Positions 46,184 through 46,400 of a stretch of DNA of 64,000 nucleotides are shown one piece after another (the stretch's first letter is position 1; each line of letters begins with the position of its first letter). Source of the DNA: Rhizophagus irregularis (taxonomy: Eukaryota); the NCBI RefSeq assembly GCF_026210795.1, contig NC_089429.1, positions 5,518,001-5,582,000 on the forward strand, written 5' to 3'. The position numbers and the translations under genes were made by a program. The notes below the pieces were generated by a model, which saw only the letters and a program-made list of their open reading frames with translations, was not told the DNA's origin and did no database searches.

Positions 46184-46330
46184 AACTTTAGGACAAATTA
46201 GTCAATGATTTATTATGTCTTAGGACGTATTAATTGATAGACTATTATGTCTTAGTACATATTAATTGATAGATTATAATGTCCTAGTACATATTAATCA
46301 ATAGACTATAATGACCTAGGACATTTTAGT
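46184..46330. repeat. 32-bp tandem iteron-like repeats
   Basis: Core TGTCYTAGKACR at 46216, 46248 and 46280, variant TGACCTAGGACA at 46312 (period 32), and a partial copy (TAGGACA) at 46189. Confidence 0.9.
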
Positions 46331-46338
46331 CTGATGCA

Positions 46339-46400
46339 AGCGGTTTGTCCTAGTACAATTTAATATATTAATATATTAAATTGTACTAGGACAAACCGCT
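46339..46400. repeat. Perfect 62-bp palindrome with 26-bp pure A/T centre
   Basis: AGCGGTTTGTCCTAGTACAATTTAATATATT|AATATATTAAATTGTACTAGGACAAACCGCT; all 31 pairs checked by hand. Confidence 0.98.

Follow-up and report, generated by a model that had tools for sequence, protein, structure and literature searches.

The 32-bp repeat array and the perfect 62-bp palindrome described here very probably form the outer tip of a mobile element whose boundary lies at position 46400 of the window, by which we mean the whole 64,000-nucleotide stretch of Rhizophagus irregularis DNA that was analyzed (NC_089429.1, positions 5,518,001 to 5,582,000, forward strand). On balance, we favor a reading in which the palindrome is an opened hairpin telomere, cut centrally by a predicted protelomerase, and in which the 32-bp units are extra binding sites at the element tip. 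All positions below are those of the window.

Repeat array and palindrome

The following features were delimited around the boundary.

45797 to 45858 and 46022 to 46084 (unstranded): subterminal inverted repeat, 81% identical, also matched by the homologous end L053
45951 to 46400 (unstranded): putative terminal inverted repeat, minimal extent, with a contig covering 45951 to 46368 in four of four runs
46184 to 46338 (plus strand): 32-bp array, consisting of a partial unit (core remnant at 46188 to 46195) and four units with cores at 46216, 46248, 46280, and 46312
46339 to 46400 (unstranded): perfect 62-bp palindrome, centered between 46369 and 46370, with cores at 46346 to 46357 and 46382 to 46393, a 5'-AG start, and a CT-3' end
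46361 to 46378 (unstranded): AT-only center, TAATATATT followed by AATATATTA, identical in four of four aligned ends
46401 to 46405 (plus strand): AATGC, right copy of a 5-bp target-site duplication, at which the host flank starts

The initial annotation had described a quasi-palindromic 12-mer recurring through this region, and the recurrence proved robust. The core, TGWCYTAGKACR, occurs without mismatch at 46216, 46248, 46280, 46312, and 46346 on the plus strand and at 46382 to 46393 on the minus strand. With one mismatch allowed, both strands of the 64-kb window hold 12 matches against 1.68 ± 1.24 expected, a count reached by 0 of 100 shuffles; ten of these fall at the six core sites and two are strays (15478 and 59917). 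A partial core upstream of the array was likewise recovered, as TTAGGACA at 46188 to 46195, in 32-bp register with the array. TRF delimited the array at 46188 to 46328 (period 32, 4.4 copies, 82% matches). Successive cores are spaced 32, 32, 32, 34, and 36 bp apart, with the last two inside the palindrome, and the corresponding steps into the palindrome of L053 are 32 and 36 bp. The proposed phasing of about three helical turns therefore holds within the array (32/10.5) but ends at the palindrome, where the spacings are 34 and 36 bp. That array and palindrome arms share a core was also confirmed, in the window and in the homologous ends.

The repeated unit is the entire 32-mer rather than the 12-mer alone. 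In the window's three full units, identity was 30/36 in the core and 52/60 in the spacer, so that the core is not conserved above the spacer, which the initial annotation had itself named as grounds for abandoning an iteron-like array; together with the shift in spacing to 34 and 36 bp at the palindrome, this sets the window's copy apart from an iteron-type array. Across 11 units from four loci (two of them nearly the same sequence), the core was modestly ahead (571/660 versus 874/1100). Each unit is a loose dyad centered on the core and extending past it; outside the core, 25/36 positions fit the dyad compared with 14.1 after shuffling, although the units are not independent and the single-unit test gave a P of 0.12. 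A unit also resembles a palindrome half-site, with the core and TATTAAT common to both, and the number of full units varies (three in L053, four in the window and L054). The array likely offers multiple sites at which proteins of the element's end or replication machinery bind.

The palindrome is 100% complementary with no loop, and it is the longest of the window's four perfect palindromes with arms of at least 11. The 24 bp between its two cores contain 0% GC, and its interior is laid out as core-N3-TAATATATTAATATATTA-N3-core. The cores are 36 bp apart in four of four ends and always 12 bp from the center, compared with 7 or 5 bp from the end. Since the core keeps its distance to the center and not to the end, a protein that binds it more likely acts at the center than at the integration end, and the integrase is disfavored as the binder. 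We regard the replicase as the leading candidate at somewhat below even odds and the protelomerase as a substantial possibility, with the core's dyad form and the oriS-like layout slightly favoring the replicase; the integrase is an improbable binder, as is a host protein or no binder at all. Whichever protein binds, the array would offer it additional loading sites next to the telomere.

The palindrome is likely an opened hairpin telomere, or telomere-resolution site, whose AT-only center is the predicted region of cleavage or hairpin turning. The arrangement expected of a protelomerase system, a palindromic site with an invariant central 18 bp, was found 8.2 kb from the recombinase gene. The AT-rich center, which the initial annotation read as a melting region, is terminal, perfectly symmetric, and invariant, and it fits a telomere-resolution site at least as well. 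No fold-back joint at 46369/46370 was listed in the assembled contigs of seven public runs, and no free hairpin form was observed among assembled contigs. In a 31-mer graph, a 62-bp palindrome inevitably breaks contigs at 46368/46371, so these breaks were discounted as signs of a hairpin, and an opposite-strand joint from 45863 to 46313 is better explained by the subterminal inverted repeat than as a fold-back. Rfam returned no matches between 45000 and 47000.

Homologous ends and the element boundary

A metagenome scan for two cores 18 to 26 bp apart returned 64 loci, of which three (L053, L054, and L060) were homologous to the terminus, each with an array and a palindrome; the other 61, lacking similarity to the terminus, were dropped as unrelated satellites or chance. 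Because L054 and L060 are nearly identical, the three represent about two independent end types. In all three, a 32-bp array leads into a palindrome whose central 18 bp are unchanged and whose cores lie 36 bp from each other; the leading half-unit is present in L053 and L054, and L060 begins inside the array. Although the ends are only 79 to 84% identical, they retain the 32-bp period, the first half-unit, and the central 18 bp. Symmetry and similarity to the window both end after the terminal CT in L053 and L060 (29 and 31 nt from the center, respectively), beyond which the flanks are unrelated; the L054 contig stops at the outer core. Every end seen finishes in CT, with arms that start with AG, and the L053 end reads AGTAGT//ACTACT. 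These homologous ends, together with the boundary described below, bear out the initial placement of the array at an element end.

Substitutions in the arms of the homologous ends are largely mirrored. Within 24 nt of the center, this applied to 4/4 differences in L053 and 4/5 in L060, and 5 of 22 pairs were changed on both sides, a value reached by 1 of 500 shuffles (with only four rows). Mirrored changes at positions that are free to vary suggest that one arm was copied from the other.

Public sequencing runs located the boundary to the base. In runs X3 and X11, an identical arm is joined to a different flank exactly after 46400. Read in the orientation of the terminal repeat, this second flank ends in AATGC directly before 46339 (X3), and its reverse complement stands behind 46400 (X11); the resulting AATGC pair has a chance probability of about 0.001. 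A second 5-bp pair (chance, 0.005), ATTTT and AAAAT, follows L053-type ends in X14 and X3; it is weaker, as it comes from two different runs, is AT rich, and includes one arm with two changes. Both pairs match over 5 bp, not 6. The left end lies outside the window, so each duplication rests on the pairing of two separately seen flanks; neither the partner flank nor the X11 sequence was found in the window, and no record among the public contigs spans both element ends. Duplications of 5 bp outside the palindrome point to a DDE integrase.

Run X1, which was flagged as a possible source of the window and is hence not independent, contains the 62-mer of the window together with another 62-nt contig that is in register and differs at 10 positions; depths there (62-mer, 29.1; flank, 15.4) suggest a single copy of this end. 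The contig covering 45951 to 46368 had 1.7 to 3.0 times the depth of the unique right-flank contig in four of four runs, depth being a weak guide. The paired flanks and this roughly twofold depth are consistent with a terminal repeat of at least 450 bp and two ends per element.

Several related records were also seen. In X11 record 16 (46382 to 46520), only 19 bp of the palindrome (the outer core plus the last 7 bp) precede the right flank; the sequence before them is absent from the window and ends in AGCGG plus one base, like an arm start. This may be an allele that was rearranged, partly excised, or interrupted. A second end subfamily differs at 46 to 47 positions over 46110 to 46368 and has its own 62-nt palindrome (X1 records 2 and 7, X3 record 23, and X11 record 11). 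Its depth relative to flank was about threefold in X1 and about onefold in X3 and X11, with no such long record listed in X14, hinting at a copy number that varies between samples. Finally, positions 1352 to 1400 of L051, a 6,979-bp metagenome contig, carry the same core twice around an AT-rich spacer within a longer imperfect inverted repeat; this contig had no blastn similarity to the window.

Genes associated with the terminus

Named homologues of the nearby open reading frames (ORFs) were all from Glomeromycota, the closest being from Rhizophagus (86 to 94%). The genes considered here are as follows.

1 to 1275 (plus strand): broken rve integrase with a C-terminal endonuclease-like domain, the integrase's N-terminal ~130 residues falling outside the window on the left
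1362 to 2140 (plus strand): frameshifted A32-like packaging ATPase (Pfam Pox_A32, 4.6e-06), fused to the integrase in six gene models
23115 to 23879 (minus strand): conserved ORF of no known family, last in the P0265 order
24395 to 26660 (minus strand): F-box/LRR cargo genes, by Pfam
36467 to 36871 (minus strand): small ORF, retropepsin-like by eye, with no Pfam match; it adjoins the recombinase in P0012, P0047, P0049, P0068, and P0165
37015 to 38118 (minus strand): intact 367-amino-acid protelomerase-like tyrosine recombinase (R199, K232, R301, Q330, and Y341)
41714 to 45030 (minus strand): decayed replicase gene, with an N-terminal AEP-like primase, a Zn-finger-like stretch, and a UL9-like SF2 helicase

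Of the core genes in this copy, only that for the recombinase is intact; those for the replicase, integrase, and ATPase are broken. The structure model of the recombinase (pLDDT of 71) predicts a fold of the TelA/ResT protelomerase type. VIA-align gave a Z of 10.4 to TelA (254 residues aligned, rmsd of 7.8 Å, 8% identity) and 8.7 to the ResT catalytic domain (135 aligned, rmsd of 4.1), compared with 6.6 to Cre, about 4 below TelA. Foldseek did not separate the two (TelA, E = 4.3e-3; Cre, E = 3.8e-3, rank 1); in BFVD, the telomere resolvase of EhV-86 ranked second. The R-H and H-Y spacings in Cre and lambda Int are about 22 to 23 and 9. The recombinase has R-K, R-H, and H-Y spacings of 33/29/11, close to the 31/28/11 of TelA (R255, K286, R366, H394, and Y405; PMC3558466). 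The second His position is Q330 in the window's copy, a Q shared with several others, and H in many homologues, and the R-K-R-H/Q-Y pattern was matched by 32 of ~240 proteins, a set that includes many fragments and some integrase homologues. There were 78 recombinase homologues, all named ones from Glomeromycota, and a profile search gave 548 matches at an E of ≤0.001. No protelomerase match to the recombinase was found in Pfam and PDB sequence searches, and Noc was rejected as an identity, its matches being weak (E of 0.036 and above). IMG/VR held no relatives by recombinase, integrase, helicase piece, replicase alignment, or palindrome pattern, GTDB genomes held none, and phage records gave only two chance matches (E of 4). 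The predicted protelomerase probably acts on the palindrome.

The replicase gene starts 1.3 kb inside the element end and reads away from it. The window's copy has three in-frame stops and one frameshift; homologues reach ~1,140 amino acids and cover all pieces. It matches Pfam Herpes_ori_bp (8.7e-13); its homologues align with the helicase domain of UL9 (E = 1.6e-12), with a weak hit to the primase domain of poxvirus D5 (E = 0.062). The UL9 match is confined to the helicase domain, at chain residues of about 60 to 380; the UL9 origin-binding domain (536 to 851) had no sequence match in the replicase, for which the structure model was poor (pLDDT of 44.6). Where the initial annotation had proposed an initiator or a resolvase, the element thus encodes proteins resembling both, a UL9-like helicase and a protelomerase-like tyrosine recombinase. 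Between the replicase start and the terminal repeat (45070 to 45610) lie three 19-nt copies (45140, 45190, and 45274), three 23-nt copies (45427, 45498, and 45583), and a 21-nt inverted repeat (45276 to 45341), which may serve as promoters or operators.

The integrase lies 45 kb from the element end, past nested elements, and reads inward. It is ~82% identical to the 554-amino-acid P0224, and its relatives P0231, P0233, and P0238 match Pfam rve. The C-terminal part matches PHROG endonuclease families (best named E, 1.5e-12); in this family (445 to 1275; P0224, P0231, and P0233), the fused zinc-ribbon/endonuclease-like domain is unusual and is a candidate hairpin-opening nuclease. Gene order offers indirect linkage. 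An R. diaphanus gene model, P0265, carries the replicase, the recombinase, F-box/LRR, and the ORF at 23115 to 23879 in that order; P0234 combines the integrase, F-box/LRR, and the ATPase; and several mis-joined gene models combine the recombinase with F-box/LRR. More than one module was matched by 19 of 299 proteins (mis-joined gene models from other species). None of the 299 directly joins the integrase to the replicase or recombinase, so a single element is probable only. Orientation, Maverick-type ends, and shared F-box neighbors suggest, with fair confidence, that the integrase belongs to this element, and by the same indirect linkage the ATPase probably does so as well.

Other insertions were noted in the intervening DNA. 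A hAT-like element (39145 to 40403; BED finger, DUF659, and TAGGG...CCCTA ends) is nested between the replicase and recombinase and is itself flanked by GGGTCAGGTCGGGT-type inverted ends at ~39120 and ~40435. A Plavaka-transposase element (28029 to 34082) with ~200-bp inverted ends is nested in another element (26657 to 36325) that has 43-nt inverted ends and 25- and 50-bp satellites. Two inserts are filled with satellites (4402 to 5634 and 40474 to 41330), one a 72-bp array enclosed by 40-nt inverted repeats and the other an 81-bp array. Crinkler-type genes (15774 to 21456; two Pfam Crinkler N-terminal matches, an NTPase, and nuclease-like parts) lie between the integrase and F-box/LRR genes and may be either cargo or a later insertion. 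Beyond the terminus, BED-finger/Sel1-repeat genes (48421 to 51656 and 60806 to 61441) have N termini resembling the nested hAT transposase (72 to 77% DNA identity) and are likely transposase-derived host genes outside the element.

Alternative readings and a possible life cycle

An unlikely alternative is a herpes oriS-like origin within the terminal repeat, in which the UL9-like primase-helicase would bind the cores and array and melt the 24-bp AT spacer and the recombinase would act elsewhere. In herpes simplex virus (HSV) oriS, OBP dimers bind three boxes, two of which are inverted and flank an AT-rich spacer (PMC12543377). The terminus of our element has the same layout of inverted cores, AT-only spacer, and adjoining extra box, its 36-bp core spacing is fixed in all four ends, and the replicase starts 1.3 kb from the array. 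In contrast to HSV-1, helicase and primase are joined in one protein, the site is at the element end, the boxes are themselves dyads, and the origin-binding domain, residues 536 to 851 of UL9 (PMC12543377), was not detected by sequence. Symmetry would have to be held by selection or conversion, and an origin alone leaves unexplained the mirrored unconserved positions, the end of symmetry exactly at the element boundary, and the protelomerase-like gene after the replicase. This reading is nearest to the initial annotation and would be compatible with a hairpin telomere if the telomere doubles as an origin.

It is improbable that the terminus is an ordinary Maverick-type terminal repeat, with the palindrome a single-stranded racket, a fold-back priming structure, or an integrase landing pad, the array a product of slippage, and the recombinase a passenger or dimer resolvase. 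The element does share with Mavericks/Polintons a putative terminal inverted repeat, a target duplication, and 5'-AG...CT-3' ends and, if the indirect linkage holds, an rve integrase and an A32-like ATPase. Vertebrate Mavericks, whose duplications are 6 bp long, most often end in the AGTAGT//ACTACT motif found in the L053 type (PMC8097293). Conservation of the whole unit, variable unit number, and the fact that fold-back priming likewise copies one arm from the other also suit this reading. It does not account for a period, first half-unit, and central 18 bp kept through 79 to 84% identity, for a core positioned from the center, or for a recombinase that is nearer TelA/ResT than Cre/Xer and is the sole intact core gene. 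Scans of 28 and 32 window proteins with Pfam and of 52 window ORFs with PHROGs gave no pPolB match, nor any Pfam or PHROG match to a jelly-roll capsid or cysteine protease, these scans being insensitive to divergent capsids. Replication would instead depend on an AEP-primase/UL9-like SF2 helicase, whereas the Maverick substitutes described in the sources consulted are SF1/SF3; the protelomerase-like gene, the perfect 62-bp end palindrome, and the integrase's C-terminal nuclease domain are further differences. With a 5-bp duplication and no pPolB match, the element is not classed here as a Maverick. It appears to be Maverick-like at integration and N15/TelA/ResT-like at its ends.

Very improbable is a Cre/Xer-type site, in which an att- or lox-like palindrome would let the tyrosine recombinase integrate or circularize the element, with the array as accessory arm sites. 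The tyrosine-recombinase fold and the first rank of Cre by Foldseek E value suit this, and the X11 allele, in which a single core and the final 7 bp adjoin the same flank, may be the product of core-by-core recombination. A crossover inside the site, however, would leave one arm derived from the target, and mirrored arms would not be expected; the 5-bp duplications outside the palindrome indicate a DDE integrase, the spacer is symmetric, and the Z to TelA is ~4 above that to Cre. A host minisatellite beside a chance or assembly-made palindrome, for which the many other tandem arrays in the window and the core's lack of extra conservation there might speak, can be set aside. The initial annotation had listed an ordinary minisatellite as a refuting outcome, and against it stand the same architecture at unrelated flanks in other assemblies, different flanks meeting at one exact boundary, contigs from several studies that contain the palindrome, and compensated arm changes.

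The hairpin telomere that we prefer resembles known protelomerase systems (Agrobacterium TelA, Borrelia ResT, and phage N15 TelN/telRL) in the predicted fold and R-K-R-H-Y spacing and in a perfect palindrome with a conserved center, here 62 bp, compared with the 56 bp of N15 telRL (PMC13236599). It differs in belonging to a eukaryotic nuclear element, in placing the palindrome at a chromosomal junction inside a target duplication, and in showing no sequence-level similarity in Pfam, PDB, and phage-record searches. The nearest life cycle is that of the Ectocarpus phaeovirus elements (EVEc), integrated eukaryotic DNA elements with a telomere resolvase and a telRL-like site, for which hairpin-ended linear replication has been proposed (PMC13236599). 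As described there, EVEc has a single internal site and a separate tyrosine recombinase that integrates via attL/attR and a circle; our element has terminal sites and the marks of a DDE integrase.

Given the predicted protelomerase-like fold of the nearby gene's product, a free, linear form of the element with sealed ends is likely to exist alongside the integrated one. The tip of such a hairpin-ended episome would be at 46369/46370. In protelomerase systems, replication turns a hairpin tip into a palindrome, which the protelomerase then resolves (PMC13685816, PMC3558466). Reinsertion of the linear form would proceed through the retrovirus-type integrase, which would require a 3'-OH after the terminal CT; the hairpin stem would be nicked after CT, for which the integrase's fused nuclease is a candidate, followed by strand transfer with a 5-bp stagger and host fill-in. 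Nicking, transfer, and fill-in of this kind would yield a perfect, fully mirrored palindrome ending at CT inside a 5-bp duplication, as seen. Each integrated end would then be a ready resolution site, so that protelomerase cleavage could release the element, and excision would leave hairpin stubs on the chromosome. More tentatively, we propose a Glomeromycota-wide, self-replicating transposon with N15/Borrelia-type hairpin telomeres as well as an integrase and packaging ATPase of the Maverick type, which is copied as covalently closed linear DNA by its primase-UL9 helicase, integrates by nicking its own hairpins, excises by protelomerase cleavage that breaks the chromosome, and carries F-box/LRR cargo.

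Parts of such an element have already been published. Maverick-related A32 ATPases have been reported from fragmented assemblies of Glomus and Rhizophagus (bioRxiv 10.64898/2026.06.19.733378), the Maverick order is present in R. irregularis repeat libraries (PMC11075540), and "replication-origin-binding" genes of suspected viral origin occur across Glomeromycotina (PMC10234402). Full-text literature searches returned nothing that combines Rhizophagus with protelomerase or protelomerase with Polinton, the Glomhopper paper (PMC13465315) contained none of six terms looked for, and no description of this element appeared in the other literature listings; Repbase and Rhizophagus transposable-element libraries may hold these ends.

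If the proposal is true, a protelomerase works in a fungal nucleus on defined natural sites, and hairpin-closed DNA has a route into the chromosome through a DDE integrase. This would bear on Maverick excision and would be approachable with one 367-amino-acid protein and a 62-bp oligonucleotide. To our knowledge, stable transformation of arbuscular fungi of this kind has not yet been achieved, and the element could possibly provide a linear vector for them. It would also house the "replication-origin-binding" genes and fragmentary Maverick-like ATPases of Glomeromycotina and would point to a mobile element as one origin of F-box/LRR genes and of broken chromosomes in an important plant symbiont.
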